From the NCBI GenBank assembly GCA_905178155.1, contig CAJINV010000026.1, positions 132,814 to 153,455 on the forward strand: 20,642 bases of DNA. The letters run 5' to 3'. This DNA is from Amoebophrya sp. A120 (Eukaryota; Protista; Dinoflagellata). The stretch's first letter is position 1. Each line of letters begins with the position of its first letter. Of this stretch, positions 1 through 19,239 are shown piece by piece. Below the pieces are notes generated by a model. The model made no database searches. It was not told where the DNA came from and saw only the letters and a program-made list of their open reading frames with translations. The translations under genes and the position numbers were made by a program.

Positions 1-505
1 CCGACATTCGCACGACTTCCCCTCGGCACCGCTACGGAGCCTGCGCGTCTGTCAAAAAGCGGCGCGTCTGCTTTGAGGGTGCCTGTCGCAAAATAGTCCT
101 CGCCATAGTCGCTAAGCAGCACGCCGGTGGCCGGACAGCCCAGAAGGCATGCGCGCACAGCCGCGCATAGACATTCGCGCTGCTCCCGCTGGTGCCACCG
201 AAGGCCGCCAATTGGTACACGGAACGAGGGCGCGCGCGTCCGGGTAGAAGGGGCACAACCTGAAAAGGCCGGGGCGCTCTTGGGCCGCCCTTTCGTGCTT
301 TTCTGCCCCGTTAGTTGCCGGCTTGTTTTCATTTGGTCGGCGTTTAGGAGCCTTTTTCTTTGCTAGGCCGATTTGTTCCTAAAACATCATCAACAACCTT
401 TGTCTACATCGCGTCCTGGTCCTCCCAAGATGAAAGAAAACCTACAAAGAGCTGGCGCCTACCAAAAAACGAAAAAGATAAACGGCTTTTTGCCGCTATT
501 GACGC

Positions 506-722
506 TGGGCGCGATGCCCAAAACCTGCCGCCCCGGAGCAAAGCGACCGGGGGTCGCTTTTGAATTCCCCGCGCGGATTCTGCAAAACTTCTAAATCTAT
601 TAACTTTGGGCGTGATGCCCAAAACCTGCCGCCCGGGAGCAAGGCAATTTCCGCAGTAAACTGTAGCTTTTGCTTGTCATTCTTCCAAGCGATTTCCGCA
701 GTAAACTGTAGCTTTTGCTTGT
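506..722. repeat. Two short local duplications
   Basis: TGGGCGYGATGCCCAAAACCTGCCGCCCSGGAGCAA occurs at ~506-542 and ~607-642. ATTTCCGCAGTAAACTGTAGCTTTTGCTTGT occurs at 647-677 and 692-722. Confidence 0.85.
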
Positions 723-773: not shown

Positions 774-982
774 TATCCAAGAAAAAAACGCTGTTAGTGT
801 AAATTTGTGATGCGCAACACGCAAGCTGATTGCGTCTGTCATGCTTGGCATGCATCATAGGGTCCATTAAAGGGCGTTTTCCCGTACTATCTGCGCATGA
901 CAGGTTTTTGCTGTCATGCCAGACAAATTTGTAATGCTGTTCCTCCAAAAAAGTTACACCTACAATGTTTTTTTCTTGGATA
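774..982. mobile_element. TIR element (family B-like), in the presumed 3' UTR of the large gene
   Basis: Ends TATCCAAGAAAAAAA...TTTTTTTCTTGGATA. Exact direct repeat TCAAC at 769-773 and 983-987. Confidence 0.9.
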
Positions 983-997
983 TCAACTGCAATAATA

Positions 998-3900
998 TTA
1001 CCAGCCAAACTCCCGGTTCTGCGGACCATTTGGGTCGGGCATAAACACCTTCATGACCCCCGTGGGCACGAACCACGTGTCCTTTGGTAGGATGCGGTTT
1101 CCCTGGCACCGACACGAGTGGAGATGCCCGGGGGCCGATATCGATGGAAAAAGCTGTCTTAGTCTACTACTCAAAGAACCTGTGCAAATCCGGCAAGACA
1201 AATTTGCGAAACACGAACACGAGGGAAAGACGTATGAGAGACGACACGACTGTCACTGTCTTGCATCTCCAGCATGACAAAAGCAAAACACTGTCTACTC
1301 CAGGACGAGGGTCTTGCGCATTACAAGTTGAGATTGACCAGAGAATGTTTTCTCTATACGATAGCCGACCGCACGGAAATACTGCGCACGTGGAATCCGC
1401 AGTTGCAATTGTTTCCCGTGATCGTGTATCAAATGCAAATATGTCTGGGTCTGGAAGGAAAAGCAGGATGCATACTTGTAATGCTGCACGTGGATTCTGA
1501 AAAAATCTGTATTGCAGGAGCAGCAAAAGCAGTGCGTTTCTTGCTACACGGGGGGGCATTTCTGATGCAGTATGGGCGTCAGAAAGCCGTCACAATAGCC
1601 GTGATGCTAGAGCATGCATCACAGACATCGCCGGGGATGCAAAATGTGCATGACAAACTTCCCGACCCAGACATATTTGCAGTTGATATCGTGTTATGAT
1701 GCGCTCCATTCGCGTACTTTTCCCACTCCGGGTGCGAAAGCGTCTGGCAATAGAGCGCCATCACCGTGCCCTTGTTGTCCTTCTGTCGCTGCGCCACTGA
1801 ATCAATGTAATTTTGCTTCCGCTCGATTTCCTCCTTGGACAGCTTGAGCTTTTTACCACCGCTATCGAAAGGAAAGACTCCCCCTCCCCATATTGAAAAG
1901 GTATTTTTCCGCAACTTTGTGTTGCTGATTTGAGGTCACAAATCACATTCGTGCTGCAAGAAGACAATGGCAGAAGCTGCCGCCTCATTATGGAAGCCGT
2001 TTGTCATGCTGTTTGGCCTAAAGGGGAGCTGTTTGCCATGCTCGACAACTAGACCCAGGCGCCTGTGCCTAGGCTGGGTATCTGGCCGCAATGCCTTCCT
2101 GCAATACAAAGCGTATTTGTGTACACAAATCCAGCCTCAGAAATTCCGTTTTGATATGGGGAGGGGGGATTTTTCATTTTGATAACCGCGCAGATCGCCT
2201 TTCGCCTCCTCGAGGTCGTCCCAATCTTCATAAGCCGCCCGGTATCAAATGCAGATATGTCTGTTTTACTTTTGTACGGCTACGGCATTACCTGGCTTCC
2301 TTTTTCAGCATGAGAAAAATAAGTAGCGCTTTTGCGCCAAAATGTGGCGAATGGTTTTCACTTCAACTTTTTGCGCCCCACGCGCAAAAGCAAGTGCTTT
2401 GAATCACGAGCGCAATAAGATTCATGTCTCGATATCCGAGGCCCCAAAGACTGTCGCCTAATGAGCAGAAAAAAGCTCGCTTTTGTCTCGCGTATCACGA
2501 CATTATGGCGTGGGACAAATTTCTCCACCAAAATTTGAAAAATCGTTTTCACTTCAACTTTTTGCGCCCGACGCGCAAAACAAAAATCTTTTGAATCACG
2601 AACGGAATCTGATTCAAGTCTCGATACCCGAGGCCCCAAGGACTGCCGCTGAATGAGCAGAAAAAATATTTTTTTTGTCTCGCGTATCACGACGGTATGG
2701 CGGAGGGCAAATTTCTACACCAAAATTTGCAAAGTTGTTTTTAGTTCAACTTTTTGTGCCCCACGCGCAAAAGCAAAATCTTTTGAATCACGAGCGGAGT
2801 CTGATTCTAATCTCGATATCCGAGGCCCCAAGAACTACCGCTTAATGAGCCGAAAAAACCTTTTTTTTGTCTCGCGTATCACGACGGTATGGCGTAAATC
2901 AAATTTCTACGCCAAATTTTGAAATATCGTTTTCACTTCAAGTGTTTGCGCCCCACACGGAAACAAAAAGTCTTTTAAATCACGAGCGGAATCTGACTCA
3001 ATGCTCGATATCGGAGGCCCCAAGGACTGCAGCTTAATGAGCAAAAAAGTCCTCTCTTTTGTCTCGCGTATCACGACGGTATGGCGTAGAGCAAATTTCT
3101 ACACCATAACTTGCAAAGTCGTTTTCACTTCAACTTTTTGCGCCCGACGCGCAAAAAAAATCTTTTGAATCACGAGCGGAATCTGATTCAAGTCTCGTTA
3201 TCCGAGGCCCCAAGGACTGCCGCTCATTGAGCAGAAAAAAGCTCTTTTTTGTCTCGCGTATCGCGACGGTGTGGCGTAGGAAAGATTTCTACGCCAAAAT
3301 TTGAAAAATCGTTCTCACTTCAACTTTTTGCGCCCCACGCGCAAAAGCAAGTGCTTTGAATCACGAGCGCAATAAGATTCATGTCTCGATATCCGAGGCC
3401 CCAAAGACTGTCGCCTAATGAGCAGAAAAAAGCTCGCTTTTGTCTCGCGTATCACGACATTATGGCGTGGGACAAATTTCTCCACCAAAATTTGAAAAAT
3501 CGTTTTCACTTCAACTTTTTGCGCCCGACGCGCAAAACAAAAATCTTTTGAATCACGAACGGAATCTGATTCAAGTCTCGATACCCGAGGCCCCAAGGAC
3601 TGCCGCTGAATGAGCAGAAAAAATATTTTTTTTGTCTCGCGTATCACGACGGTATGGCGGAGGGCAAATTTCTACACCAAAATTTGCAAAGTTGTTTTTA
3701 GTTCAACTTTTTGTGCCCCACGCGCAAAAGCAAAATCTTTTGAATCACGAGCGGAGTCTGATTCTAATCTCGATATCCGAGGCCCCAAGAACTACCGCTT
3801 AATGAGCCGAAAAAACCTTTTTTTTGTCTCGCGTATCACGACGGTATGGCGTAAATCAAATTTCTACGCCAAATTTTGAAATATCGTTTTCACTTCAAGT

Positions 3901-6900
3901 GTTTGCGCCCCACACGGAAACAAAAAGTCTTTTAAATCACGAGCGGAATCTGACTCAATGCTCGATATCGGAGGCCCCAAGGACTGCAGCTTAATGAGCA
4001 AAAAAGTCCTCTCTTTTGTCTCGCGTATCACGACGGTATGGCGTAGAGCAAATTTCTACACCATAACTTGCAAAGTCGTTTTCACTTCAACTTTTTGCGC
4101 CCGACGCGCAAAAAAAATCTTTTGAATCACGAGCGGAATCTGATTCAAGTCTCGTTATCCGAGGCCCCAAGGACTGCCGCTCATTGAGCAGAAAAAAGCT
4201 CTTTTTTGTCTCGCGTATCGCGACGGTGTGGCGTAGGAAAGATTTCTACGCCAAAATTTGAAAAATCGTTCTCACTTCAACTTTTTGCGCCCCACGCGCA
4301 AAAGCAAGTGCTTTGAATCACGAGCGCAATAAGATTCATGTCTCGATATCCGAGGCCCCAAAGACTGTCGCCTAATGAGCAGAAAAAAGCTCGCTTTTGT
4401 CTCGCGTATCACGACATTATGGCGTGGGACAAATTTCTCCACCAAAATTTGAAAAATCGTTTTCACTTCAACTTTTTGCGCCCGACGCGCAAAACAAAAG
4501 TCTTTTGAATCACGAGCGGAATCTGATTCAAGTCTCGATACCCGAGGCCCCAAGGACTGCCGCTGAATGAGCAGAAAAAATATTTTTTTTGTCTCGCGTA
4601 TCACGACGGTATGGCGGAGGGCAAATTTCTACACCAAAATTTGCAAAGTTGTTTTTAGTTCAACTTTTTGTGCCCCACGCGCAAAAGCAAAATCTTTTGA
4701 ATCACGAGCGGAGTCTGATTCTAATCTCGATATCCGAGGCCCCAAGAACTACCGCTTAATGAGCCGAAAAAATCTTTTTTTTGTCTCGCGTATCACGACG
4801 GTATGGCGTAAATCAAATTTCTACGCCAAATTTTGAAATATCGTTTTCACTTCAACTTTTAGCGCCCCACGCGCAAAAAAAAAATCTTTTGAATCACGAG
4901 CGCGATAAGATTCATGTCTCGATACCCGAGGCCCCAAGGCCTGCCGCTTCATGAGGAGAAAAAAGCTTTTTTTTGTCTCGCGTATCGCGACGGTATGGCG
5001 TAGAACGAATTTCTTGCCCAAAGTTTGAAGATCGTTTTCACTTCAACTTTTTGTCACCCACACGCAAAAAAAAAGTCTCTCGAATGACGAGCCAAATCTG
5101 GATCAATGCTTGATATCCGAGGCGCCAGGAAAGCGGTCTCATGAGCAGAAAAATTCCTTGAGGCTTCTCGCGTATCACGGCGGCGTGGCGCAACATAAAT
5201 TCTAATTCCCTCCTACTCCTGCGTTGCATGCATTACAGATCTCGCTGCCTTTCAAATTTCGCATCAGAAATTGAGACCCAGATCGATATTTGCATTGCAT
5301 ACCTCGAGCTCCTGGTTCATTTCTAGCTGCTGCTGCTGGAAGATTCGTACCCCGCACCCGTCATCGACTTGGACTTGCGCATAGGAGTATCTTTGTCCCG
5401 TATCCAGGGAATCCTCTGGCTCGGCGTACCCAATCGAGCCGTCCAAGTCGCCGTGCCCTGACATAATGATTTTCTCGTGGGTCGCGAAAGGGATCTTCTG
5501 AATGCCGCCACGCAGACCCTGGTCTTTCGTGAAGGAGATGATCGTTTTGCCGGGGACTGCACCCTCCGGACCCAAAGGGTACACGCGGCCACCACCTCCG
5601 GGTATCATTCGCGTTTTGTACTGGGCAAGGGCCTCCGCGAGTTTTTCTTTCTGCGGACCAAGGTACCTAGTTGTAAATCACAGAAGCGACTTGAACTTGT
5701 AATGCGTATAATGCGTTGCTCTTGCAAGCCACTGGATTTTGATTTTGATCAGCATTGATGTAAGTATTCTGAGAACAACTGCGCGCATGGTACTAATTCA
5801 TTGACTCATTTATTCCACATGTAGACCTCCACGCAAAGAAGCAAAAGTAGAACCGAAGATGTATAGAGAAAAGGCCTCACCACACGCAGGCCTTTGCCAT
5901 CATGCTCTTCGAGTTGTAAAAGTACTTTATCAATACCCCTTGTCGACACTTGTTATGCCCAATTGTACGAGTTGATTGTAGTCTGCCATGCTCAACCTGC
6001 CTTCCCGCATGTCCAGTATGACATTGCACAACTCCCCCTCCTGTCATTTGTATAGCATGAACGGCATGTGACAAGCATCAGCAAGAAAGCCGGTTTTGCA
6101 TGAGAAATGTACACTGGAGTGTAGTGCAAGTGCTATTTGGGCCGCTACCAGAACTTGTCATGCAAACAGTGCCATAGGGCAACGACTGGAGTCTGGGTTT
6201 TGCATGACAAATGAGGCGGAGGGGGAGTTGCGCACTGTCATATCCAGAGCTGGGTCTTCAAACGGCAGCCCGGCCGCGGTGCCGCCTTCGTTCTCCCAGT
6301 TGGATGCATTGCAAATCTGTCTGGGTCTGGGAACTTCTTGTGATGCAAATTTACAAATTGCGCGGGCGCTGCAATATGCAACCCAGCATGACAAGTTTTT
6401 GCGCTGCTGTGTGTTTCGTTTTTCGCACGACAAACTGCGTGGTTGCATGACAGGCAAGCGGCCCTTTTCCTGCTCATGCATCACAGATTTAAGAGTCACG
6501 CCAGACACACATGACAAACTTGCATTCTTCCAGACCCAGACATATTTGCAATTCATAAGTTGGATGTCATAGCATCTTTCTGCTCGCCCTTGTGGTCAGC
6601 GGCGGTCACGGGCCCGCGTTTTTTCTTTTTTCGGCCCACATTCTTTATCCGGTCCCACATCTTCCCTCCTTTTGATTTCGCATCCTTTTTTTTTCCTCCC
6701 GATTTTTTATTCTCGTCGTGGTCCTTGCTCTTGCTCTTCCCGCGATCCGAGCTTCTGGAACTGCTTTTGCTGCTCCCTCTATTAGAACTCCGGCTGCTGG
6801 TACTCGTTGCTTCAGCTTCGGTATCCCACGAAAAAAGTGTTACAGTTACACATTTGTAGTGAATTCAGCAACACAAATTTCTCTGCATGAGAGAGAAAAC

Positions 6901-9900
6901 TTGTAATGCAGAAATCCTACAGGAAAACACCTATGAAACGAGGATCCGATGCACATCCGGCATGACAGAGCTTGTTTGTCTTGCTTGGCCTGCAACACAA
7001 TGTGTAACTGTAACACTTTTTTCTTGCGATATTCGGCCTCTGGAGCCCCACCCTCATCTCCGCCGGCTTGATCATCTGCGTCGTCTTTGCCGCTACTGGA
7101 AGAACTATTTTTCGTCTTTTTCTCGCTTTTTTTACTACTACTTCCCTTGATCTTGTTAACCAATCCGTCCTTCGCGTCCCTTAACTTTTCTTTTGCGCCT
7201 TTCAACTTTTCTTTCATCACGCTTTTCTTCTCTTTGCTGCTGCTCTTGCTCGTGCTTGTCCCTCTGTTGCTGCTTCTTGTACTGCTCTTGCTGCTAGTAG
7301 ACTGGTCTTCGTTAGTACTATCCTTCGAGCTGCCGCGTCTGCTGCTACCTCTACTGCTGCCTCTGCTGCTACCTCTACTGCTACCTCTACTGCTGCCTCT
7401 ACTGCTTGTTGCAGCTTCGTCTTCATTCTCCTTGTCGCTGCTGCCTCTACTGCTTGTCTTCGAGGAAGACGAGCCTCTCCTCGACGAAGACGAGGAATCT
7501 GCTCTCCTGGATGAAGACGAGGAATCTGCTCTCTTGGATGAAGACGAGGAATCTCTCCTGGATGAAGAGGAGGAGGGCCGCGTGAATGTCTTTTCCGTTC
7601 GTTCGACGTTTTCCTCCAAAAACGCAGGCTGGAGGTCTTCATCTTCCACGAGAGCTACGTCTTCAAGGATTTCATCTACTGCAGCAGGTGGTCCATGATC
7701 TACTTCCTCGTCTGCTTGGTCAGGTCCTCGCTGCTGTCCTAGATTTATTTCTGGCTGGTATTTTTCCGTTTCAACATCTTCCACCAGAAACGACTCTCCT
7801 TGTACAACTTCCTTATCCTTTGTTGAAGATGGCGTAGGATAAAAATCTTTGTCCCCTACTTTCTCTGATACTTCTGCACCAGTATGATCTTCTACCGCCG
7901 CCCCCACGTCGTCTGGTTGGTGTACTTCGGTCCTCTCCCTGGCAGGAACATTTGCATTTGCATGAAGGTGAACATGATCTGTTCCATCGTCGTGCAATAA
8001 ACCATCTTCGTCCACCGTCGTGGTTTGTTTTTCGTTTTCCTCAGCCCGTCGTGAGGGGGAAGAAATTATTCTGTCATCCTCAACCTCCTCCTCAACCTCT
8101 TCATTGAAAACGAAACTGGACTCCGGTAGGGGCTCAGTCGTGTCTACTTCCGGGTCGTCATCTGGCGGAGCAGTACCAGACTCGGTTGTACTAGGATCAT
8201 AACGACCATCGGTTTCTTCTTGTTCTCCACCGTCGTGGTCATATGATCTCCCACGTCGAAACGGTCCCTCGTCATGGTCCTCGTGGTTGTGAAGATGCGC
8301 GTCATCATCTCCATAGAAGTCCTCGTCCTGGTGGTCATCTGCAAGGAAGGAATGATGCGCGCTGTCTCTGACAACATCATTCTCTCCGATTTCGTAGTCA
8401 TGACCGCGTTCTTCATCACCGTCGAGTTCCTCCTCTACTTCTAGCATGCTCTATCAAATGCAAAAATGTCTGGGTCTGGAAACTTGCGATGCTAAAAGTG
8501 AATGGTAGACGGACTGCAGTACGCAGCTATGTATGACAAACTTTTTGGCTCCCATGTCTTACGTATTCCGCATGGCAAACTGCGTTTTTGCATGACAGGT
8601 AAGAGGGCCTTTTCGTGCTTATGCAACGCAGATTCTCGACTCATGCCAGACAAGCATGACAAACTTGCATTCTTCCAGACACAGACATTTTTGCATTTGA
8701 TATGTTCCCGGTTTCGTCAAACGCAAGCGGCTCGTCCTCGTCTTCGCGGAAATATTCCTGTATGAAATGCAAAAGCATCTATACTACGTAGTGATTGCAA
8801 TACAAATTCACTTAGCATGATAAATGAAATCGAGAAGGGTACGCTGTGGGACCTAAAAAGCAACCGCTTCCGCTCCTGTAGCCTCAAAAACCAGCGCGGC
8901 CGCCGGAGAGTACTCCCCTCGTGATTGGCCTTGTAAATGTCACGCGATTTGCATCGTGTGGCGACGCAGTCCGCCCGTGATTGTGCTTGCTTTGAGGAAG
9001 CGTTTCAAAACAACACAAAAAACGACCGAAGTGGCCGAGTCCCGTGCTGTTTGCCGCCGGATTTGGGGGCGCGGCAAACCGGCGCACATTTTGCGCGGCA
9101 GTCCTCTGGCCCAATTTGGACCGCCCCGGGCGACCTTCCCCCGGTCTACCTCGATTTCGGGGGAGGATTCCGCAGAGGATTCCGGAGAGGATTCCAAAAT
9201 CCTCTCCGGAATCCTCTGGCCCAAGTTGAGCCGTGTTTCGCGCCCTTTCCCCGACGGCACGGCCTCGATTTCGGGGGAGGATTCCACAGAGGATTCCGGA
9301 GAGGATTCCAAAATCCTCTCCGGAATCCTCTGGCCCAATTTGGGCCGTCTTCCGCGCCCTTCCCCCGATGGCACTGCCCCGATTTCGGGAGAGGATTCCT
9401 CAGAGGATTCCTCAGAGGATTCCAAAATCCTCTCAGGAATCCTCTGGCCCAATTTGGGCCGTCTTCCGCGCCCTTCCCCCGATGGCACTGCCCCGATTTC
9501 GATCGGGAGAGGATTCCACAGAGGATTCCTCAGAGGATTCCAAAATCCTCCCAGGAATCCTCTGGCCCAATTTGGGCCGTCGGTCTTCCGCGCCCTTCCC
9601 CCGATGGCACGACCTCGGTTTCGGGGGAGGATTCCACAGAGGATTCCGGGGAGGATTCCAAAATCCTCTCCGGAATCCTCTGGCCCAAGTTGAGCCGTCT
9701 TTGGCGCGCGCCCTTTCCCCGACGGCACGACCCCGATTTCGGGGGAGGATTCCGCAGAGGATTCCAAAATCCTCTCCGGAATCCTCTGGCCCAAGTTGAG
9801 CCGTCTTTCGCGCCCGTTCCCCGACGGCACGACCTCGATTTCGGGGGGGGATTCCACAGAGGATTCCGGAGAGGATTCCGAAACCCCCTCCGGAATCCTC

Positions 9901-12900
9901 TGACCGGATTGGCGCCGTCCTTCGCGGTCTTTCCCCGGCGGCACGGCGTCGATTTCGGGAGGGGATTCCGGAGAGGATTCCTCCGGAGCCCTTTCTCCCG
10001 TGGTACGCACTACCTCATCCGGGAGGATTTCCCCGGGGACATGGCGGACCCCCCGAAGCGAGGGCGGACCCCCCGGGGGCGAGGGTGGATCCCCCGGAGA
10101 ACGGGCGGATCCCCGGAAAGCGGGCGGATCCCCCGGAGAACAGGTGAATCCCGCGGGAAGCCGGCGGATCCCCGGGGAACGGGCGGATCCCCGGGAAGCG
10201 GGCGGATCCCCGAGTAGCGGGCGGATCCCCGAGTAGCAGGCGGATCCCCAGGGCGAAGGCGGATCCCCGGGGAGCGGGCGGATCCTCGGGGCGCGGGCGG
10301 ATCCCCGGGGAACGGGCGGATCCCCGGGGAACGGGCGGATCCCCGAGTAACGGGCGGATCCCCTGGGCGAAGGCGGATGGATCCCCTGGGCCAAGGCGGA
10401 TCCCCGGGAAGCGGGCGGATCCTCGGGGGGCGGGCGGATCCCCTGGGGGAAGGCGGATCCCCGGGGAGCGGGCGGATCCCCGGGGAATGGGCGGAGGGAT
10501 TCCCTGCGCGAAGGCGACTCCCCGGGGAGTGGGCGGATCCCCTGCGCGAAGGCGGATCCCCGGGGAATGGGCGGGCTCCTGGGCGAAGGCGGATCCCCGA
10601 GTAACGGGCGGATCCCCTGCGCGAAGGCGGATCCCCGGGGAATGGGCGGGCTCCTGGGCGAAGGCGGATCCCCGAGGAACGGGCGGATCCCCTGGGCGAA
10701 GGCGGATCCCCGGGGAATGGGCGGGCTCCTGGGCGAAGGCGGATCCCCGGGGAACGGGCGGGTCCCCGGGAAGAGGGCGGATCCCCGGGAAGAGGGCGGA
10801 TCCCCGGGGAAGTTGGCGGATCCCCGGGATGAGGGCGGATCCCCGGGGGCGAGGGCGGATCCCCGGGGAACGGGCGGATCCCCCGGTCGAGGGCGGATCC
10901 CCTGGTCGAGGGCGGATCCCCGGGGAGCGGGCGGATCCCCGCGGGCGAGGGCGGATCCCCCGGAGAACGGGCAATCTGTTTCACGGGCGATATACGTGCT
11001 CCACGGTATTTAATTTCCCACAAAATAACAAGCAACCTTCGTAGTTCCGTCGTGTTTCGCGTTTTAGGTCTCAGAGCGTACCGGTCTCATGAAATTTGTC
11101 ATGCTGATTTGCCTTAGCAACGAGATTTGGAATGTATGACTGCGATTTTTACTACGAGTACGATACTTTTGCACAGGATATCCTGCTCGTCCAGCGGCTG
11201 GTCGTGGTAAACGATGTGACTTTGATCTTCTGCATCGTCATCCAGATTCATTTCCATCCCGTCGCCGGGAGCCGGGCTGTTGTACGTACCTGCTTCAACT
11301 CGGTGGTCATCGTCTTCGCGGCCCATATTTTCATCCTCATCGCCGTAGTCTCTGTCGTCATGATGATCTTCTAGGTCCGCATACTCCAGAAACCGCTCGT
11401 CTTCGTCTTCCTCTGTGTTGTCTGCTCTGTACATGATCCTTCGTGCTGGCAGCTCTGGCTGTAGTTCTTGATCTTGATCATCCACCGTCGGTAGTTCCTG
11501 GTCTCCTTCGTCGAAGAATACGTCTTCGTTGATTTCGGGAAAGTTTTCTAGCAAGGCTTGCTCCGGGTGGAAGTCTTCTTCATCTTCATCTTCTCCTGGT
11601 GCATCTACCGCACTACCTTCTTCAAAAAACTCGTCGTCCTTGTTCGGTGCAACTGGGAAGTGGTTCTCCTGCAGTTCGCGGTCGTGGAACTCATCGTCAT
11701 TTTCATCGACGCTGGCCAACATCTTCTCCTGATTTTTCTCACCCTGCTCTGTAATTTTCCTCTGGTCAATCTGTAAAAAATCCTCGCCACTTGGCGACAT
11801 TGTCCCGACTCCAGCCTGCGCCGGAGCAGCTTTATTTCCCATATCGATTTCTTTCTGCACCAGCATCGGATGCACTTCCGGTACCCCGGTGCTGCGCCAG
11901 AGGTGCCTCTCGGTGCCGTCTTTCATTTTTACTACCACCCTCTCCTATCAAATGTAAAAAGTGTCTGGGTCTGGAAGAATGCAACTTGTGATGCTGCGTC
12001 TGCATTATCCAAAAATCTGTATTGCATGAACAGCAAAAGAGGTCTAGTTTTGGCCACGGCGAGAGGGCATTTCTCATGCGGTATAGGCACAAGAAAGCCC
12101 TCACAAGATCTGCGATGCTAGGGCATGCATCGTAGACATCAGGAGTCACGCAAAACGTGCATGACAAACCTTGCATCCTTCCAGACCCGGACATTTTTGC
12201 ATTTGATATCTCCGCGAAGTCTGGGTGGATAGTATCCCTTGAAAAAACTGCTTCACTCTGAGGTGTGATGATTTTGCAAGATCTGCATCACAAGTTTGTT
12301 AATACACATGACAAAGAAAACTTGGCATGCGTGCTTCCTAAAGGAAGAACACACAGCTAGAAATCCAATGTCTTGCATGTGTAGCAACACAAACAAACTT
12401 GCATTCCGTTCTATGCATCACAAGTTTGCAGTGAAGCAGTTTCAGTTTTTTCTTACGATAGATGAGGCCGCTTCGGTAATCCGGATGATCTTCGTCCCAG
12501 AAATCAGGGTGGAGCGCGTATTATGCGTAGCAAAAATGTCTGGGTCTGGGAAGTTGCAACTTGTAATGCTGTCTTTGAATTCCAAAAAAATCTGTATTGC
12601 ATGACCAGCAACGGGGGTCCAGTTTGTCTTACGTGGAAAGGGCATTTGCATTTCTCATGCGGAATGGGCATTAGGAAGCCCTGTAAAGAAAAAGATCTGT
12701 GATGCTAGGTCATGCATTACAGGCATCAACATCATGGATCATACGAGATATGCATGACCAACCTGGCAACTTTCCAGACCTAGACATATTTGCATTTGAT
12801 ACGTATAATTTGCCTGACGCCGCGTGGAGGTTTTCTGCTCCCTCTACTGGTGCATCTACTAGTGCTTCACCGTCGTTATTCGCTTGTTGCAAGAAAGAGC

Positions 12901-14030
12901 TTTGTTGTTCTACTGGCGGTGGTGGTTCTTTTCTTTCAAAAGACGTTGCGCCGTCTACGTGCTTTGAAGATGAAGATGACGACAAAGCCGCCTGCGCCTC
13001 CCTATCGTCGTCCGGTGAGACAAAACCGTTCCCAACACCCAGCCGCTCATCATAGTCATCGCTGACATCGTATCCCAAGAAAAAAGTGTATACAGTTACA
13101 CATTTGTTCGAGTTTCTGCATCACAAATTTTCTCTGTGTGGCAGGCACAACTTGTAATGCAAAGATCATAAGGGAAAACAGAAAGGAAACGAGCCTCCCA
13201 AGCATTTCCTGCATGAGAAAGGTTGTCTCTGTTGCTGGTCTTGCATCATAATGTGTAAGAACTGTAACACTTTTTTCTTGCGATACACCCAGCCGCTCAT
13301 CATAATCATCGCTGACATCGCCCTCCGGTTCTACTACGGAGGAAGATAGGAGGTTTTGATCGGCTTGTGAAGCAGAAGCATAGTCGTCTGGTGATGTCGC
13401 GGCTTGACCTCCGCTACTATTTGTTCCGTGGTCACCGTTTCTTCCCTTCACCGTGTCCAGCTGCGTCCAGAAAAGGAAAAGGAGGAGAAACATCCAGTAA
13501 AAGCCGTTTCGGACAAGCAAGATTGGTTTCAATTGCGATAGGAGGTAATAGTGGTGAAAAACTACCCGGTCGGTTTTTCCTGTTTTCGTTTTTCGCCTCG
13601 CTCGGTTGTGTGCGTAGATTTTGCTGGTGGAGGAAAGAGGTGGTGCTGCAGACTTTTTCAAATTTGCGATCGTCGACAAGGAAATAAATGATTGGCGCTC
13701 GTCTTTTTCGGAATCAGGTGAGGCGGAAGCTGTACTGTCGCTGGACCTGAAACAGGACGCGGACGATGTTGGAAAAAGACTCTGTATGCCGCATGGCTGC
13801 ACTTGTTTTTGTCTTCCCGAGCACCACTTGTGGCCCGTGTATGATCCGGCGTGCTTGGGTGGTGACGTTGACGAAGAAGAGGGTGTCGCGGGAGATGCAG
13901 GTACAACTAACCGAAATTGAATCCGCTCTCCGAATGGTGTTTCTGCAAACGCGGCGGTCGGCTTTCTTGGAGGAACACCTCCGTCGACACCACCTGCACC
14001 ACTAGGCACGGTCGCCATTGCGCTGGCCAT
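998..14030 (-). CDS. Large 15-exon protein of unknown function (~1483 aa). It has a hydrophobic TM/signal-like segment near aa 165-190, long D/E-rich and S/R/K-rich low-complexity regions, and a Cys/His-containing C-terminus.
   Basis: Manual splicing, counting each direct repeat once. Exons: 14030-13286, 13035-12802, 12516-12461, 12227-12209, 11940-11181, 8755-8703, 8446-7032, 6816-6558, 6297-6243, 6011-5937, 5666-5302, 2237-2185, 1857-1689, 1421-1364, 1133-998. Total 4452 nt (divisible by 3), no internal stop, ends TAA. It links ORF-track fragments 13056..14030, 12710..13078, 11114..11938, 6846..8447, 5264..5608, 1579..1914 and 998..1201. Junction peptides read sensibly, e.g. GKLYALHPDFWDEDHPDYRSGLIHPDFAERVVVKMKD, DEQEYFREDEDEPLAFDETGNMLEVEE, NQELEAAYEDWDDLEEAKGDLRGGKKLKLSKEE. 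The start codon is uncertain. Confidence 0.85.
1139..1363. mobile_element. Degenerate TIR element / non-canonical intron
   Basis: Ends TATCG...CGATA with a weak TIR. Exact direct repeat GCCGA at 1134-1138 and 1364-1368. Removal restores the frame (VRS-APGHLH). Confidence 0.8.
1427..1688. mobile_element. TIR element family A / non-canonical intron
   Basis: TATCAAATGCAAATATGTCTGGGTC...GACCCAGACATATTTGCAGTTGATA. Direct repeat TCGTG. Confidence 0.95.
1863..2184. mobile_element. TIR element family C / non-canonical intron
   Basis: TATCGAAAGGAAAGACTCCCCCTCCCCATAT...ATATGGGGAGGGGGGATTTTTCATTTTGATA. Direct repeat ACCGC. Confidence 0.92.
2243..5301. mobile_element. Giant family-A TIR element / intron (3059 bp) containing a satellite array
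   Basis: Left end TATCAAATGCAGATATGTCTG; right end GACCCAGATCGATATTTGCATTGCATA. Flanks CCCGG/CCTCG match 3/5. Removal plus 5 nt keeps the frame (ELE-AAYEDWDD). Confidence 0.8.
2354..5205. repeat. Satellite of ~15 monomers of ~191-192 bp, organised as a 957-bp 5-mer higher-order repeat
   Basis: CACTTCAAC-like anchors at 2359, 2550, 2742, 2934, 3126, 3316 ... 4273 ... 5039. Near-identical ORF translations recur at 2358/3315/4272 and 2653/3610/4567 (period 957). Confidence 0.97.
5667..5936 (-). other. Canonical GT-AG intron (270 nt)
   Basis: Minus strand AAGGG|GTATTG...TTTACAACTAG|GTAC. Splicing gives in-frame SVDKGYLGPQKEKLAEALAQYKTRM and avoids an immediate TGA. Confidence 0.75.
6017..6242. 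mobile_element. TIR element (family C-like) / non-canonical intron
   Basis: TATGACATTGCACAACTCCCCCTCC...GGAGGGGGAGTTGCGCACTGTCATA. Direct repeat TCCAG. Confidence 0.93.
6303..6557. mobile_element. TIR element family A / non-canonical intron
   Basis: GATGCATTGCAAATCTGTCTGGGTCTGG...CCAGACCCAGACATATTTGCAATTCATA. Direct repeat AGTTG. Confidence 0.92.
6822..7031. mobile_element. TIR element family B / non-canonical intron
   Basis: TATCCCACGAAAAAAGTGTTACAGTTACACATT...AATGTGTAACTGTAACACTTTTTTCTTGCGATA. Direct repeat TTCGG. Confidence 0.95.
7330..7575 (-). repeat. Coding tandem repeats, (SSRG)n and SSSSRR(A)D
   Basis: 12-bp units CTACCTCTACTG and ~27-bp units CTGGATGAAGACGAGGAATCTGCTCTC lie inside the 8446-7032 exon. 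Confidence 0.9.
8452..8702. mobile_element. TIR element family A / non-canonical intron
   Basis: TATCAAATGCAAAAATGTCTGGGTCTGGAA...TTCCAGACACAGACATTTTTGCATTTGATA. Flanks TGCTC/TGTTC match 4/5. Confidence 0.95.
9103..9990. repeat. Tandem repeat, ~8 copies of ~106-118 bp, with 12-bp subrepeats and an internal palindrome
   Basis: CCTCTG anchors at 9103, 9213, 9327, 9441, 9559, 9677, 9783, 9897, with GAGGATTCC subunits. Confidence 0.95.
10020..10972. repeat. GC-rich minisatellite, ~20-21-bp unit GGGCGGATCCCCGGGGAAC, roughly 45 copies
   Basis: GGCGGATCCCC recurs continuously across the interval. Confidence 0.95.
11946..12208. mobile_element. TIR element family A / non-canonical intron
   Basis: TATCAAATGTAAAAAGTGTCTGGGTCTGGAAG...CTTCCAGACCCGGACATTTTTGCATTTGATA. 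Direct repeat TCTCC. Confidence 0.95.
12233..12460. mobile_element. TIR element (family B-like) / non-canonical intron
   Basis: TATCCCTTGAAAAAACTGCTTCACT...AGTGAAGCAGTTTCAGTTTTTTCTTACGATA. Flanks GATAG/GATGA match 3/5. Removal gives GLI-HPDFAE. Confidence 0.87.
12522..12801. mobile_element. TIR element family A / non-canonical intron
   Basis: TATGCGTAGCAAAAATGTCTGGGTCTGG...CCAGACCTAGACATATTTGCATTTGATA. Direct repeat CGTAT. Confidence 0.93.
13071..13285. mobile_element. TIR element family B / non-canonical intron, flanked by a 35-bp duplication
   Basis: TATCCCAAGAAAAAAGTGTATACAGTTACACATT...GTAACACTTTTTTCTTGCGATA. 13036-13070 and 13286-13320 are identical at 34/35 positions. Confidence 0.93.
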
Positions 14031-16029
14031 GGCTCGCGGGGTGGGGAGCAGCCCGCGCTCCCACCCGCTTCATGCGTGGTTACCACGGCAAAGCTGCCCT
14101 CATCACGAAGGAGGCATGGTTTTGAAAGGCGGTTCTCTGCGCTCCATCGGTGCGGACCGCAGGGACGGTTGGTCTGTTCGTGGTCCTCGCAAATGAGTGC
14201 CGCTTATTAGCTTTGTGACAACTCCCTCGAAGCGAGACACATACAACAGCAAAACAGGCAAGGCTGCCCCTCAAACTGTACAGATGGGGATCGCGCGTTT
14301 CCTCTCAGGCGCTCGGGTGAGAAAGAGGCCTGTTAAAGCAGGCGCTGGGGCACTGCCGCTGCAACAGAAAGGCAAGAAGCCTCGCCCCGAAGGAAAACAT
14401 CGGCGCGCCAGCCTATCCCCTCGTCCGTTCTCGCACACATCGTCTCACTCCCTCCACTCACTTCGGGCTCGGCTGGCCGTGACGAAAACAATGCCACGAG
14501 CGGGTGGCGCGCGTGCTTCATCGCGCTCCGCAAGAAGTTCTTCTATCTGTACTGGTAAAACGGGCCACTTTATATAGCAGCAATGCATGCTTTTGGCGCC
14601 CGGGCCAATTCTGGCGCGGGCGGCGGCGGGAGAGCTGCGCCATTGATTATTCCACCTCGCCCGGGCAACCCACAAACGTGGGAAGAAAAGCCGGGGCTCG
14701 CGTGCCCCCCCGGCCGCCACCAAACCGCCCGGCGCGGGCCTTCGGGAATGAATAGCGGGGGGGGGGTTCGCCTCGGACGGCCGCCGATTCGCATGGCGCA
14801 GGCCGTTCTCTTTTTAGCGCGCCGGCAGGCCCACGGAGGCCCCCGGCAAACGGGGGCCAAGAATTCGGCGCCGGGGCTAGCCGCGCACCGGCGCGGCCGC
14901 TCGCTGTGCCCGCGCGTTTTCTAGCTCTGCGGCGAAGAATGAAGGGGCGGCGGGACCGTGACGGGGCGGCCCGCTTCGTGTTCGCGCCGTACGCTTCCGC
15001 ACCAGTGCGACCGCTTTCATCCGCTTCCACTTGCCACAAAGGGCGGCCGGTGCTGCGGCAGCTTCAGCGCTTCACTTGCGCGCCTGCGGGCCGGCGCGCT
15101 TCCTTGGGTGGCGTAGGCCGCGCACTTCAAATTCGCGTTTGCCAGAGGACCGCCTCAGACCCGCGCCCGTTTCTGCGCGAGCTGCGCGACTACGGTGCGA
15201 TCCCTGGAAGGGGGCGGCGGCTGAACCTTGTTACGGAAACCCGAGCCGCGCGCCATGATGCTCTTCAACCGGTCTTGTAGTGGATACACCTAATACAGGC
15301 TGGCTTTCGTCCACTGATGTGCTTGGAACTGGATGCACATCTAGATCTAGTGCGGAGGACCCGCATCAAAATCTATTGCTCGTTCACTTAGAGTGCCCTC
15401 CAACTCAATGGCCACTCTTCTCAGTGCTGATTTCCCTAACGCAATTCCTCCGCAGTATATCCTCTTCCCTAATCTTTCAAGACGTAAAATGTAGAACTCT
15501 TCCCCTTCTCTACCCTCTTCCACTCCTGTTAAATCAGGTCTCCACACACGACATTACAGGAATCTTACGCAGGACTCCATCGGAAAATCGCGCTTGGTGC
15601 CGATGTTAAGATTAGAAAAAAATCTGATCTGGGGACGATTGAGAAGACCGAACAGCGCACAAGAATACATGTTGCCAGGAAGCACTTGCACGGTGGCAGC
15701 GAGAGCTTTCATAGTGTACTAGTTGTAAGTATTTTCTGTTCGCGTTCTTTGCCGGAAGTTGCTGTTCGTTTTTGTCGGAAGTTGCTGTATGTACAGTGTT
15801 AATTTCCATCCAACAATATATACGCGTTGACGGTCTTGCTCGTTGAAGTATTCATTGTGCATAGAGAGACAATGATTTTTACATTTAATTTCGAGTAGTA
15901 CGTACGAGATAAATTTTGATTCTGTAAAGAGTTTCTGTAAAAAAAGCTTTTCGTTAAATCTGTAAGCTGTTGTTGTTCTTTTTCATTTTCAGCGCTTTTT
16001 CATTTTCCAACCACCACTTCACTTCCACC

Positions 16030-17613
16030 CTATTCCTTGCCGCTATCCAGTGAAATAAATACATCAGGATCACAAGAAAAGCTGCGTACTTTGTACCACG
16101 CTGATGTTGCTGTTGTACCAATAGGGCATAACAAGTGTGTTGCGTTTTTCTTGTGACTCTGAAGAAATATTTTCATCAGATAAAACATCTCGCCCTGTAA
16201 AGCCGCCACCGCCCTTCGCCGCTCCCTATCAAATGTAAAAATGTCTGGGTCTGGAAGAGTGCGCGATTTGTCATGCAGCTTTTCCATGATCCATGAGGTC
16301 TGGAATGCAGGACCTAGCATGACAGATTCTGTGCGATCTTTCTCATGCCTATTCTGCATGAGAAACTGCCTCCCGACTTGGTTAAAACTGGACGACTTTT
16401 GGTAATCATGCAACACAGATTTTTGCATGCTGCAGATTTAGCATGACAAGTCGCATTCTTCCAGACCCAGACATTCTTACATTTGATACTCCCGGATGGA
16501 TTGCAATTTCACCATCTGTTGCTCCATCGCATCTATCGCCTCCTTCTCGTCCTTATCAAATGCAAAAATGTCTGGGTCTGGATGATTCCGGGATTTGTCA
16601 TGCTAGTCCGGCATGGCTCTGAGCTCTGTATTGCGTGGCCGCAAAGGGCTTCTCTTGCCTGTCATGCAGAAACGCAGTTTCTCATGCGGAGTACGCAACT
16701 CTGCACCACGGAAAAACTTGTCATGCTTGGCAGTGCATTACAGTATGCGCATTTTTCCCTGGCTTGCATCACAAGTTTCCAGACCCAGACATTTTTGCAT
16801 TTGATAGTCCTTGGCCAACTGCTGGTCGAGATTGTAGTTCAAGTGGACTTCGTTCAGTATCTCCGCTGCCTTCAGCGGATTGTTTTCGACGTTGGTGGCA
16901 ATACTGTATCAAGGTCGAGACATTTCCTATCCCAGTATCGCTGTTCACGTACATGCCTTTGTAGCCCAACATGTGACCAGCAGCCAAGGACTATGGCTTA
17001 GCTATTTCGTAGCGAAATGCGGATGTTGGTGCACCGTGAGAAGATGGCGTCTTCCGCGGATTATTTTGCGTGTGTTTCATGATCACATTCCGGAAGCGCC
17101 AACTCACTTTGTTTTTGCGGAAGCAAAAAGTATACAAATTTGTCAATGGAAATGGCTGCCGCACAGACAGAAGGAAAGAGCTCTTTTCGCGAACAACCGC
17201 ATGCCACGAATGCTGGGATCGGACTATTTTCAAGCTGACACCTTTTCCTGCACACGCATCGAAACCTGCACGTTGTCCTCCGCGACGGGGAGCATGTTAC
17301 CCCGGAGCTTCGCCCGTCGCTCTGCGCGGCGCCTTGTGTTCTCCATGCGCTCTGTTGATCAATAGTTCGCTTGATTCATACATAACTTCAACTATCTCGA
17401 ATCGAGCTCATAATTATGGTCGACTATTCATTCAACATCATATTTATTCTTCAACCGCCGCATCAACATTAATAAATTTCTTCGCACAAAAAAAAAGTAA
17501 GTACTTTTTTTATCCTTCTCGGACTCCTCTCGTTTCTGTGTCGTTTTGGCGCCGAACTTGGCTGTGGTAGAAGAGCTGCCTGTCGAACTCGATCCGATTT
17601 TTGGGGGGAGCAT
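16030..17613 (-). CDS. Small charged, probably coiled-coil protein (~140 aa) of unknown function; may extend further 5'
   Basis: Exons 17613-17505, 17351-17241, 16901-16807, 16548-16489, 16221-16183 and 16038-16030 total 423 nt in frame: MLPPKIGSSSTGSSSTTAKFGAKTTQKREESEKDKKKRMENTRRRAERRAKLRGNMLPVAEDNVQVSMRVQEKVATNVENNPLKAAEILNEVHLNYNLDQQLAKDEKEAIDAMEQQMVKLQSIRERRRAVAALQGEMFKE*. The first and last junctions are less certain than the middle ones. Confidence 0.7.
16044..16182. mobile_element. Probable short decayed TIR element / intron
   Basis: TATCCAGTGAAATAAATACATCAGGATCACAAGAAAA resembles the reverse complement of the right end, TATCTGATGAAAATATTTCTTCAGAGTCACAAGAAAA. There is no intact direct repeat. 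Element plus 5 nt is 144 nt (frame-neutral), and read-through is also open. Confidence 0.55.
16227..16488. mobile_element. TIR element family A / non-canonical intron
   Basis: TATCAAATGTAAAAATGTCTGGGTCTGGAAGA...TCTTCCAGACCCAGACATTCTTACATTTGATA. Direct repeat CTCCC. Confidence 0.95.
16554..16806. mobile_element. TIR element family A / non-canonical intron
   Basis: TATCAAATGCAAAAATGTCTGGGTCTGGA...TCCAGACCCAGACATTTTTGCATTTGATA, a perfect 29-bp TIR. Direct repeat GTCCT. Confidence 0.96.
16907..17240. mobile_element. Decayed TIR element / intron
   Basis: TATCAAGGTCGAGACATTTCCTATCCCAGTAT resembles the reverse complement of the right end, TGTCAGCTTGAAAATAGTCCGATCCCAGCAT. The direct repeat is lost, but removal plus 5 nt gives in-frame VQEK-(V/I)ATNVENN. 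Confidence 0.65.
17352..17504 (-). other. Canonical GT-AG intron (153 nt), AT-rich
   Basis: Minus strand AAAAAAA|GTACTTAC...ATCAACAG|AGCGCATG. Splicing gives in-frame EKDKKKRMENT. Confidence 0.65.
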
Positions 17614-19239
17614 GTAGCGTCCCCGGCGAATAATGCAGAGACAAGATGTGGGACAAGAACCCAATTCAAACCTGGAGTCTTCGACTTAGAGTCTGTAACT
17701 GTACGAACATGCACTGAAGTCGTTGAATGACACATGATTGGCTGCTACATTGCAGCTGTTGTCGTTCTATCTCGTTTTGAAATTCTTTCTGCAACGAGCC
17801 CGGTTGTCAGCCACGGCGCACCGTTGGAAATACTTACGATACAAATGGCGCATGTGGCTTTTGCTTTCTTTCATGCAGACAATATACGGCTCGCAGTATA
17901 ATCGCGATGATCGGTTGTTGACCCATGAATGTTCGGAGATATCGACGTCCGGTAGCGCCTTGCTGCTGGAACTGAGTATCAGACTTCAAAATACCGCCAT
18001 TTTCGCATATTCTAAGCTGGAACAATCAAGGTTCTCAATACCGCAAAACGTATTATGCCTTGTTTCGGGGCGGCAAGACAGTGCATAATCATGACAAGTT
18101 TCAAAGAGATAAACTCAACAATGGCGAACGGAATTCGTACCAAGTGACCAACTTTGCCTTTCTGTGAATATGCGGGGGCTGGACCCGGTATTTGTGCTTG
18201 ATAACCAAGTTGAAGCTCGTGTCTTGATCTGTTGTTGAAAGTTGAAAAGTTCGGTTGAAAAATTATTTATTACACAGTTCCATAAATAGCACGGGCCGAC
18301 GGATAGTCATCTTTCAGGATCGAGTCAATCATTATCATCTTTTCTCCCTCCATATCCATTCTCGTAGCACAGGATCACGAAACAACAAAATCACAATCAG
18401 ACCAAGAAGCAGTAGTTAGAATACAACTGAGCGACGAGACGGTGCTGACAGTGGAGATCGGGGACTGCAGAACCTCTTGCTCTTTTTCCTGCTCTCCGCG
18501 GAAAAGGTCCCACACTGTGGTCCCGTTCCATTTCGGGACAGGCGGCAGATGATGTGGTCGCTTGTCCATGTTCCCTCCTTCTCAAGCAATGAACAACCAC
18601 AACGCGCTGCTATTGATTACGACGAAAAAAAATGGAAAACGCTACGTATCTATTAGCGCCATATTCTGTTCATACAGTTTGGTAAAAGAATTCAGGTAGA
18701 CTGCGTCACCAACGCGAAAAGGAAAAGGTAAGGGGCGGCTTTTATTTTCGCTTCACATATTGCAAAATAAAAGTGATCTCGACATACATAGCGCGAAAAC
18801 GACAGCACGACGGGCGAGAGTAGACCGACGACAACTCAAACGGATACTCGATACGATTCGAAGATAAGTGCGCCATCTCTTCGTAGCAACGCACGATCAG
18901 ACGCGCCCGTGACACCGAGGGCCAGTACGTCGACACCAAGGCCCGAAAAAGAACAAACGGAATCCGCGTCGAAAAGACTACTTTAATGAAACTAAGTAAA
19001 AATCAATAGGAATAAACAACGAGCTCGACGACCACGACTTCGTGTAACGATCACGACGAACTTCTACTCTCAACCACTGCTCCCACGGGAAATCGTGTTG
19101 GCTCTTAAGCATGCGCGTGCAACCATCACTACTGCCAAAAACTCCGCGACTTATTATCCAAACCCTCCATCGTCGGACTTTATTGGAGCGGTGACGGGCG
19201 GCATTGGCATTGCGGCGTCGAGCATCGTTATACACTCCG

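Follow-up and report, generated by a model that had tools for sequence, protein, structure and literature searches.

The locus and its inserted elements

The window analysed here is a stretch of 20,642 nt from Amoebophrya sp. A120 (assembly GCA_905178155.1, contig CAJINV010000026.1, positions 132,814-153,455, forward). It contains two genes, A and B, and 18 inverted-repeat (TIR) elements spanning positions 774-17240 (Table 1). A recount bears out what a sequence-only reading had reported, namely that 12 of the 18 are flanked by exact 5-bp direct repeats, all 12 different. Three more (2243, 8452 and 12233) have flanking 5-mers with one or two mismatches; at 16044 and 16907 the flanking repeat is absent, and at 13071 a 35-nt duplication takes its place. 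A true TAT/ATA end is missing in two elements, one starting with GAT (6303) and one ending in ACA (16907). Element lengths run from 139 nt to 3 kb. Pairs of TAT..ATA ends whose arms match and whose flanking 5-mers are exact number 11 in the window, versus none or one in each of 40 dinucleotide shuffles, and 14 of the 18 elements match family copies at related loci. Both orientations are represented inside the genes: 16227 is inverted relative to 11946, and 16554 relative to 8452 and 6303.

Table 1. Genes, TIR elements and canonical introns in the window
Feature	Position	Strand	Remarks
Gene B, 1,493-aa frame	998..14030	-	13 TIR introns and one predicted GT-AG intron
Predicted canonical GT-AG intron, gene B	5667..5936	-	longest frame among single GT..AG choices
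Gene A, transcript span	15730..18632	-	4 TIR introns and GT-donor introns; from 999-nt contig record and frame
Canonical GT-AG intron, gene A	17352..17504	-	from frame and bin depth
TIR element	774..982	.	repeat TCAAC; 3' UTR of gene B; family copies up to 95% identical
TIR element	1139..1363	.	repeat GCCGA
TIR element	1427..1688	.	repeat TCGTG
TIR element	1863..2184	.	repeat ACCGC
TIR element, 3.06 kb	2243..5301	.	flanks CCCGG/CCTCG; 192-bp tandem array inside
TIR element	6017..6242	.	repeat TCCAG
TIR element, GAT start in place of TAT	6303..6557	.	repeat AGTTG
TIR element	6822..7031	.	repeat TTCGG
TIR element	8452..8702	.	flanks TGCTC/TGTTC
TIR element, 2.42 kb	8761..11180	.	repeat TCCTG; 114-bp and 19-bp arrays inside
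TIR element	11946..12208	.	repeat TCTCC; part of three-element contig gap
TIR element	12233..12460	.	flanks GATAG/GATGA; part of three-element contig gap
TIR element, left arm degenerate	12522..12801	.	repeat CGTAT; part of three-element contig gap
TIR element	13071..13285	.	flanked by 35-nt duplication copies; contig skip 220 nt; hairpin z = -6.2
TIR element, short, degenerate	16044..16182	.	flanking repeat absent; contig piece stops 4 nt past ATA
TIR element	16227..16488	.	repeat CTCCC; hairpin z = -8.9
TIR element	16554..16806	.	repeat GTCCT
TIR element, degenerate, ACA end	16907..17240	.	no flanking repeat; missing from 999-nt contig by depth

Seventeen elements lie in coding sequence, as first claimed, the exception (774-982) sitting behind the stop codon at 998-1000. 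Removal of 13 elements, each with 5 nt, and of one predicted GT-AG intron gives the gene B frame, which is truncated when any single one of the 13 is retained. The claim that this rule preserves the frame stands, but offsets of +2 and +8 preserve it equally and frame alone therefore cannot fix the 5 nt. At 1139 and 1427 the frame even becomes slightly longer, in a different phase, with +4/+7, which makes the frame test weak at these two elements. The product of gene B is acidic and of low complexity. A Pfam search with five of its exons gave nothing above cut-off, a search with six window exons gave a single sub-threshold match, and homologue searches with two window exons gave no match.

Removal of the elements in transcript contigs

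The RNA evidence consists of one run, presumed RNA, with one contig per gene; the raw RNA runs X7 and X8, in which just 7 and 3 reads were placed, were uninformative. The contig of gene B (record 1) matches the window with 0 differences in three pieces (13922-13285, 13064-12802 and 11945-11181). It runs from 13064 straight on to 13285 and so omits 220 nt, corresponding to the 215-nt element plus 5 nt; the element is surrounded by a 35-nt duplication, yet only 5 nt are lost beyond it. The next gap leaves 70 nt, which equals 856 nt minus the elements at 11946, 12233 and 12522, each with 5 nt. The last piece stops at 11181, the edge of the 8761-11180 element, and the record continues for 2,302 nt. 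The contig of gene A (record 4, 999 nt, likely RNA) lacks element 16907-17240, as judged by depth. This record is not fully explained, since 177 nt are needed upstream of 17504 where the bin offers at most about 132. Altogether, four of the 18 elements are measured by length in a contig (one exactly, three as a sum) and three more at one end, the junction coverage comprising elements from 8761 rightward.

The joints at 13071 and 16044 have non-canonical ends, and ordinary GT donors occur alongside element removal in the same genes. The proposal of a precise excision that coexists with GT-AG introns is supported by the likely-RNA contigs. DNA-like contigs, which come from one run, retain the elements; their depth across 16044 and 16907 is that of the flanks (45.7 vs 42-48). 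Depth in this run reaches 4.5e5 on element bins versus about 45 on unique bins. The RNA-like run lacks canonical introns as well as elements. Removal of element + 5 nt very probably happens at the RNA level.

Transposon origin and family

In a related public assembly exact 5-bp repeats flank 229 of 300 elements, against a mean of 1.1 under shuffled pairing, and the distribution of repeat lengths peaks sharply at 5. The arm consensus is TAT, seven variable bases and AAA, with A at positions 11-13 in 528, 555 and 569 of 600 arms. The caller behind this set required TAT; a TAT-free scan recovered TAT in 107/113 and 110/113 arms. Two pairs of filled and empty paralogous sites were found, the empty site carrying one 5-mer. 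Given the 5-bp repeats and these empty sites, the elements are non-autonomous (MITE-like) DNA transposons turned introns. The three elements longer than 600 nt at related loci contain frames of at most 151 aa. Searches of viral contigs and of phages with the TIRs gave no match, and an Rfam search gave a single weak match put down to chance. A 5-bp stagger is typical of Copia/Gypsy-like integrases. An integrase-like, Ginger-like TIR family of A120 carries Copia/Gypsy-like coding sequence and makes introns, according to Gozashti 2025 (PMC12130899), whereas the loci examined here yielded no autonomous copy.

Elements at related loci interrupt conserved parts of RNA polymerase II Rpb1, and they must therefore be removed in vivo. 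Removal with +5 restores Rpb1 with no new gaps (452 bits, versus 443 for +2 and 437 for +8). As the related loci obey the same rule within conserved Rpb1, the genes are functional, in agreement with the original claim. In searches with an Rpb1 exon from these loci the top match reaches 73%, dinoflagellates and Perkinsus are among the nearest named matches (43-48%) and the second-ranked match is labelled Rhizopus (38%).

We are confident that the elements are known A120-type introners. Farhat et al. 2021 (PMC7789003) describe A120 introner elements of about 240-260 nt in many families, with arms of TAT, seven variable bases and at least three A, direct repeats of 3-5 nt (5 bp in the Fig. S19 legend) and RNA-seq-supported non-canonical ends, mixed with GT-AG introns in co-oriented genes. 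The window elements are alike in all these respects and show no difference in kind from that description. Because arm consensus, size and 5-bp repeats match, the phenomenon is already known; the earlier mention of non-canonical Amoebophrya introners was right and understated how much of it (arms, repeats, splicing) that paper already contains. Its intron set is limited to 1 kb or less, whereas two window elements measure 2.4 and 3.1 kb. The text leaves the border open, as "variable", whereas three junctions here indicate one register.

Position of the cut

At 13071 the joint leaves room for a 5' cut between 1 nt within the arm and 2 nt ahead of it. For the 16044 element, the contig piece that stops at 16039 places the 3' cut 4 nt past the ATA, a total of +5 being assumed. 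The exon at 17242-17351 measures 110 nt (109.6-110.6) by depth arithmetic, as distinct from a direct junction read, and puts the cut 1 nt before the arm of the 16907 element. Only -1/+4 satisfies all three junctions and it is favoured for this reason: a fixed register, in which the cuts fall one base ahead of TAT and four bases past ATA, is probable, as drawn from three junctions of one run and partly from indirect arithmetic. The nine commonest non-canonical A120 motifs in Table S4 of PMC7789003 all begin N-T, in agreement with the -1 prediction. Eight of the nine also end A-N, which is compatible with the mirror register 4/1, and tie-breaking by the mapper could matter. The paralog pair L010 and L009 retains the downstream and not the upstream 5-mer, the repeats having diverged there, and fits a cut placed further upstream. 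A codon-score test of 28 mismatched repeats was flat across registers, with no stops, and the Rpb1 mismatch site is uninformative on the register because the homologue itself differs there.

The flanks of 162 elements show no GT or AG bias, G preceding TAT in 50 (p 0.73) and AG occupying +3/+4 after the element in 17 (p 0.24). Among the 18 window elements the third position of the repeat leans towards purines, but this did not recur in 162 others (83/162). Canonical GT/GC..AG ends occur at any +5 register in just 16 of 162, and the claim that no such register runs across the set holds. Among predicted canonical donors GTAT accounts for 21 of 100, versus 4.1% of GT sites, and is the commonest; these counts are ab initio predictions that possibly include missed elements. 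The cut does not track repeat homology, since only 5 nt are lost within the 35-nt duplication. For a pure ruler, cutting at -1 from TAT and +4 from ATA regardless of flank, orientation, repeat match or length, we consider the odds evenly balanced.

Candidate mechanisms

Taken together, the likelier account is that TAT..ATA transposon copies, whose insertion duplicated 5 bp of target, leave the RNA as element + 5 nt through a spliceosome that is relaxed in its recognition of intron ends. The cut may be measured from the arms, giving an intron of the form N-TAT..ATA-NNNN. TAT would then occupy +2 to +4, matching GTAT, the folded arms would bring both cut sites together and, as both arms are alike, either orientation would present identical ends. 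The A120 spliceosome is near-complete and U1 was not found in it, as stated in PMC7789003. The spliceosome is our favoured, though by no means assured, candidate for the cutting enzyme.

Related systems, as covered in PMC11282704 and bioRxiv 2025.08.15.670264, offer precedents. The introners of Fritillaria borealis (Henriet 2019, via PMC11282704; bioRxiv 2025.08.15.670264) are likewise MITE-derived, with TIRs, target duplications and non-GT/AG ends, and an adapted U2 spliceosome removes them. They prefer AG-AC and AG-AT ends and an exonic TAC, whereas the elements of the window type show no 3' motif. In Micromonas and Aureococcus (Huff 2016, via PMC11282704) a non-autonomous TIR element is also removed with one target copy, restoring the gene, but arm and target there form canonical GT/GC-AG ends.

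The most serious alternative, though an improbable one, is a non-spliceosomal nuclease and ligase that reads the arm stem and overhangs, as proposed for the nonconventional introns of euglenids. These resemble the present elements in their TIRs, TSD-like repeats, lengths of tens to thousands of nt and a terminal stem that begins some way inside the cut sites, and they exit as circles, not lariats (PMC11282704). The signal-free flanks, both orientations, the strong hairpins at 13071 and 16227 (Table 1) and a U1 snRNA not found in A120 are also in keeping with such an enzyme. In contrast, the euglenid stem lies at +4..6/-8..-6 with CAG/CTG, whereas here it would run from +2 to -5, and the arm consensus differs from a CAG/CTG stem at +4/-8. 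The coincidence of TAT with positions +2 to +4 of predicted canonical donors and the Fritillaria precedent speak against it, as does the lack of the G-U excess that a strict stem in the RNA would leave. Arm mismatches comprise 83 G-U versus 91 A-C, arm positions 4-16 in an extended set comprise 48 versus 75, and conservation at TAT does not differ between 5' and 3' arms (one of 28 positions differs, p 0.01). With no G-U excess and equal conservation at TAT, RNA-level selection on the stem was not detected by these tests. The idea that the paired TIRs guide excision fits the geometry, but the arm mismatches give no sign of pairing at the RNA level.

It is quite unlikely that the direct repeat itself guides removal, with a cut anywhere within it. 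Perfect repeats are kept at 229 of 300 elements, most single mismatches are silent (own count, codon-test table), the L010/L009 pair is compatible and the Fig. 3 legend of PMC7789003 calls the sites variable. Young insertions would account for perfect repeats without selection, however, and the contig at 13071 drops 5 nt rather than 35, cut at non-homologous positions, while 16044 and 16907 are missing from the contig without any repeat.

A hairpin with a short direct repeat is a typical substrate of reverse-transcriptase template-switch artefacts. Such artefacts, or DNA-level excision like that of ciliate IESs, with 15 of 449 joints of the DNA-like run examined, are nevertheless very unlikely. 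Elements with no matching repeat are skipped too, the longer repeat at 13071 is disregarded, the interrupted Rpb1 requires removal in vivo, and the DNA-like and RNA-like runs differ as described above. Use of cryptic GT-AG sites near the arms, or a dead pseudogene locus, outcomes envisaged beside element retention in the sequence-only reading, is scarcely credible: a frame-keeping GT/GC..AG pair lies within 10 nt of 10/18 window (3 with GT) and 102/193 related elements, but 8/18 and 91/193 have none, the pairs available at 13071, 16044 (where a GT..AG pair goes unused) and 16907 are incompatible with the contig, and both genes have spliced contigs (depths 24 and 38).

Implications

In the literature searched the mechanism is unresolved, as the earlier reading held, and neither enzyme nor border rule is published, although the figures of PMC7789003 may already show some of it. 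The additions made here are a cut independent of repeat homology, both orientations, flanks free of GT/AG bias and a candidate fixed register. The window offers natural test cases by which the models can be told apart, in its 35-nt duplication, two repeat-less elements, TAT-less arms, kilobase elements and elements of opposite orientation. Should the -1/+4 ruler be true, it would put an exact rule in the place of "no splicing signature", fix gene annotation in a genome with about two thirds non-canonical introns and define a substrate for biochemistry on a U1-less spliceosome. The host may have evolved a structure-measuring splicing that suits the 5-bp stagger of one transposase, carried out by a new enzyme or by a spliceosome lacking U1. 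As the ruler spans exactly one target duplication, any new exon insertion would, if this is true, be silently reversed in RNA.

TIR elements and their distribution

A scan for TAT...ATA pairs with matching arms, followed by inspection by eye, identifies 18 TIR elements in the window, and the 12 exact 5-bp direct repeats listed by the sequence-only reading are all recovered among them. Flanking 5-mers differ by one or two mismatches at three of the 18, and elements 16044 and 16907 (elements are named by start position) have no flanking repeat. The automatic count, from which element 6303 is left out because it begins with GAT, is 11 elements; each of 40 dinucleotide shuffles gave none or one. 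Two elements reach kilobase size; according to the accessible text of the published A120 analysis, introns >1 kb were left out there (PMC7789003).

Features of the window discussed in the text
Feature	Coordinates	Strand	Details
Dispersed duplications	530-720		Past the gene B end; two pairs, ~30-45 nt, by eye
Element 774	774-982		In the 3′ UTR of gene B
Gene B	998-14030	minus	From 14030 to stop 998-1000
Element 2243	2243-5301		Satellite array, 192 bp x 14.6; arms and target repeats kept
Predicted GT-AG intron of gene B	5936-5667	minus	Frame model
Element 8761	8761-11180		Satellite arrays, 114 bp x 7.3 and 19 bp x 45.6; arms and target repeats kept
Element 13071	13071-13285		Within a 35-nt duplication; end-to-end hairpin when folded (z -6.2)
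Gene A	15730-18632	minus	
Element 16044	16044-16182		
Element 16227	16227-16488		End-to-end hairpin when folded (z -8.9)
Element 16907	16907-17240		
GT-AG intron	17352-17504		Short inverted repeat near 17361-17428, unlike the TAT family, by eye
Non-canonical singleton intron or small unseen exon (likely)	17505-18424		For GT donor 18424, no AG acceptor satisfies frame and depth together
Tandem array	19249-20642		98 bp, 14.4 copies, upstream of gene A

In the metagenome collection the arm pattern finds at least 156 matching stretches, and all 80 among the matches listed are JACKZZ01 contigs. Fourteen of the 18 window elements match these related loci with identity up to 95%, and the named neighbours of an Rpb1 exon from them are mostly dinoflagellates and Perkinsus. 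An exact 5-bp repeat flanks 229 of 300 related-locus elements called without use of the repeats (shuffled pairing: mean 1.1, maximum 5); the elements have a median length of 261 and show 170 different 5-mers. Two paralog pairs provide filled and empty sites, the empty site carrying a single 5-mer. One locus (L058:2001-3031) holds a 1,031-nt element in which a 280-nt element with an 8-nt flanking repeat is nested.

Reading frames

Gene B reads as a 1,493-aa frame after removal of 13 elements, each with 5 nt, and of one predicted GT-AG intron. Retaining any single one of the 13 truncates it, and removing +3, +4, +6 or +7 shifts its frame; at elements 1139 and 1427, +4/+7 yields a slightly longer frame in the other phase. 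The earlier proposal that element plus 5 nt is the frame-keeping unit stands in that the frame opens at +5, but +2 and +8 work equally well, so that frame by itself sets the 5 only modulo 3. Open frames of ≥250 nt on both sides of related-locus elements (n=300) likewise number 73 at +5, 70 at +2 and 67 at +8, with 25-33 at other values. In the Rpb1 gene, removing three elements +5 restores the homologue alignment with no new gaps and the best score. The gene for the largest subunit of RNA polymerase II at L063:34-3833 is interrupted by four elements, one of 972 nt, and two of the four fall in stretches that align gap-free to the closest homologue. Taking out four elements and one GT-AG intron opens the frame in the 3′ part of gene A. 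Homologue searches with two window exons and Pfam searches with six gave no family placement for the protein of either gene.

Signals at the element borders

Flank counts use the 162 of 300 related-locus elements to which a codon model assigned a strand and omit the remaining 138; calls within a locus agreed in 165 of 170 pairs. G precedes TAT in 50 of the 162 and AG lies at +3/+4 in 17, neither departing from coding background, and a canonical register at +5 is available for 16. Among 193 locus-stranded elements, 91 are without any frame-keeping GT/GC..AG pair within 10 nt. Element families are found in either orientation, both within the window and in the related loci, where the two main families count 26 versus 36 and 9 versus 20. 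No selection on an RNA stem is detected: among arm mismatches G-U is not in excess (83 versus 91), and the 5′ arm keeps TAT as often as the 3′ arm does.

Transcript junctions and the cut register

Four runs were compared with window positions 11000-19100: X1, guessed to be RNA, the DNA-like X5, and the raw RNA runs X7 (7 reads) and X8 (3 reads). X1 depth is zero in three bins that are intergenic or UTR, and GT-donor introns are also absent from this run. Contigs of X5 (11159-11986, 12773-13100, 13206-16250 and 16781-19100) cross element ends, its depth within element 16907 equals that of the flanks, and 15 of its 449 joints are listed; the assembly may derive from X5. A 4,038-nt X1 record aligns with 0 differences at 13922-13285, 13064-12802 and 11945-11181. 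Its first joint skips 220 nt, the 215 nt of element 13071 plus 5, and a 30-nt tandem copy remains; the cut thus ignores the 35-nt homology. A 70-nt gap in this record matches what is left of 856 nt once three elements, each with 5 nt more, are subtracted. The record follows the genome as far as the border of the 2.4-kb element at 11181 and then runs on for 2,302 nt. Gene A is represented by a 999-nt record. The likely-RNA evidence covers the removed length for 4 of the 18 elements and a single end for 3 more.

Where repeats are perfect the cut position cannot be located, and the joint at 13071 permits 5′ cuts between 1 nt inside the arm and 2 nt before it. A record piece ending at 16039 places the 3′ cut 4 nt past the ATA of element 16044; a frame-keeping GT..AG pair ending at 16042 is unused. 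Bin depth, which reproduced four known piece lengths with errors of at most 0.3 nt, puts the exon next to element 16907 at 110.1 nt, where a cut at the arm would give 111 and the canonical pair 112. A cut one base before TAT and four bases after ATA (-1/+4) fits the junctions at 13071, 16044 and 16907, and is the sole register compatible with all three. The nine commonest non-canonical A120 motifs all begin N-T (Farhat Table S4), as -1/+4 predicts, and eight of them are compatible with the mirror register (4/1) too. Codon scores are flat across registers and lend no support. Counted against -1/+4 are one paralog pair that retains the downstream 5-mer and the 999-nt gene A record, which is only partly accounted for.

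Removal of TIR elements without GT-AG signals is well supported as real, and the phenomenon is already known. For A120 introners, the accessible text reports arms starting with TAT, a run of A and direct repeats of 3-5 nt, in 29,850 copies and with support from RNA-seq; where the borders lie and how removal works are left open there (PMC7789003). In the searched literature, subscription papers such as Roy 2023 aside, no paper resolving mechanism or register was found, the accessible parts of PMC12130899, PMC11282704, PMC11453091, PMC12005148 and bioRxiv 2025.08.15.670264 included. Part of the register may be visible already in Farhat Figs 3 and S19-S25. The new, testable point is a fixed -1/+4 ruler, which has an even chance of being correct.

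Proposed mechanism

Insertion would be the work of a cut-and-paste transposase that acts in trans and makes a 5-bp stagger. The 5-bp duplication and the empty sites are observed; a transposase for the elements was not found among the long elements of the related loci. Removal would act on RNA, as observed at the measured junctions in one likely-RNA run, and the cut would lie at a set distance measured from the arms. The main rival, by analogy with what is suspected in euglenids, is that a separate nuclease and ligase would remove the elements. With a -1 cut the intron would start N-TAT. The most frequent canonical donor in a noisy ab initio prediction is GTAT (21 of 100 donors, versus 4.1% of GT sites), an agreement that favours a spliceosome. 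The spliceosome would read +2 to +4 and tolerate any first and last bases, the 3′ site being set by the arm. Nearly all spliceosomal proteins are present in A120, with U1 undetected, in the accessible text of PMC7789003, and Fritillaria offers a precedent for spliceosomal removal of such introns in the accessible parts of PMC11282704 and bioRxiv 2025.08.15.670264.

The duplication round element 13071 (window 13036-13320) leaves the transcript with a tandem copy of 10 codons. Duplication-flanked insertion of this kind would be a route to protein lengthening.
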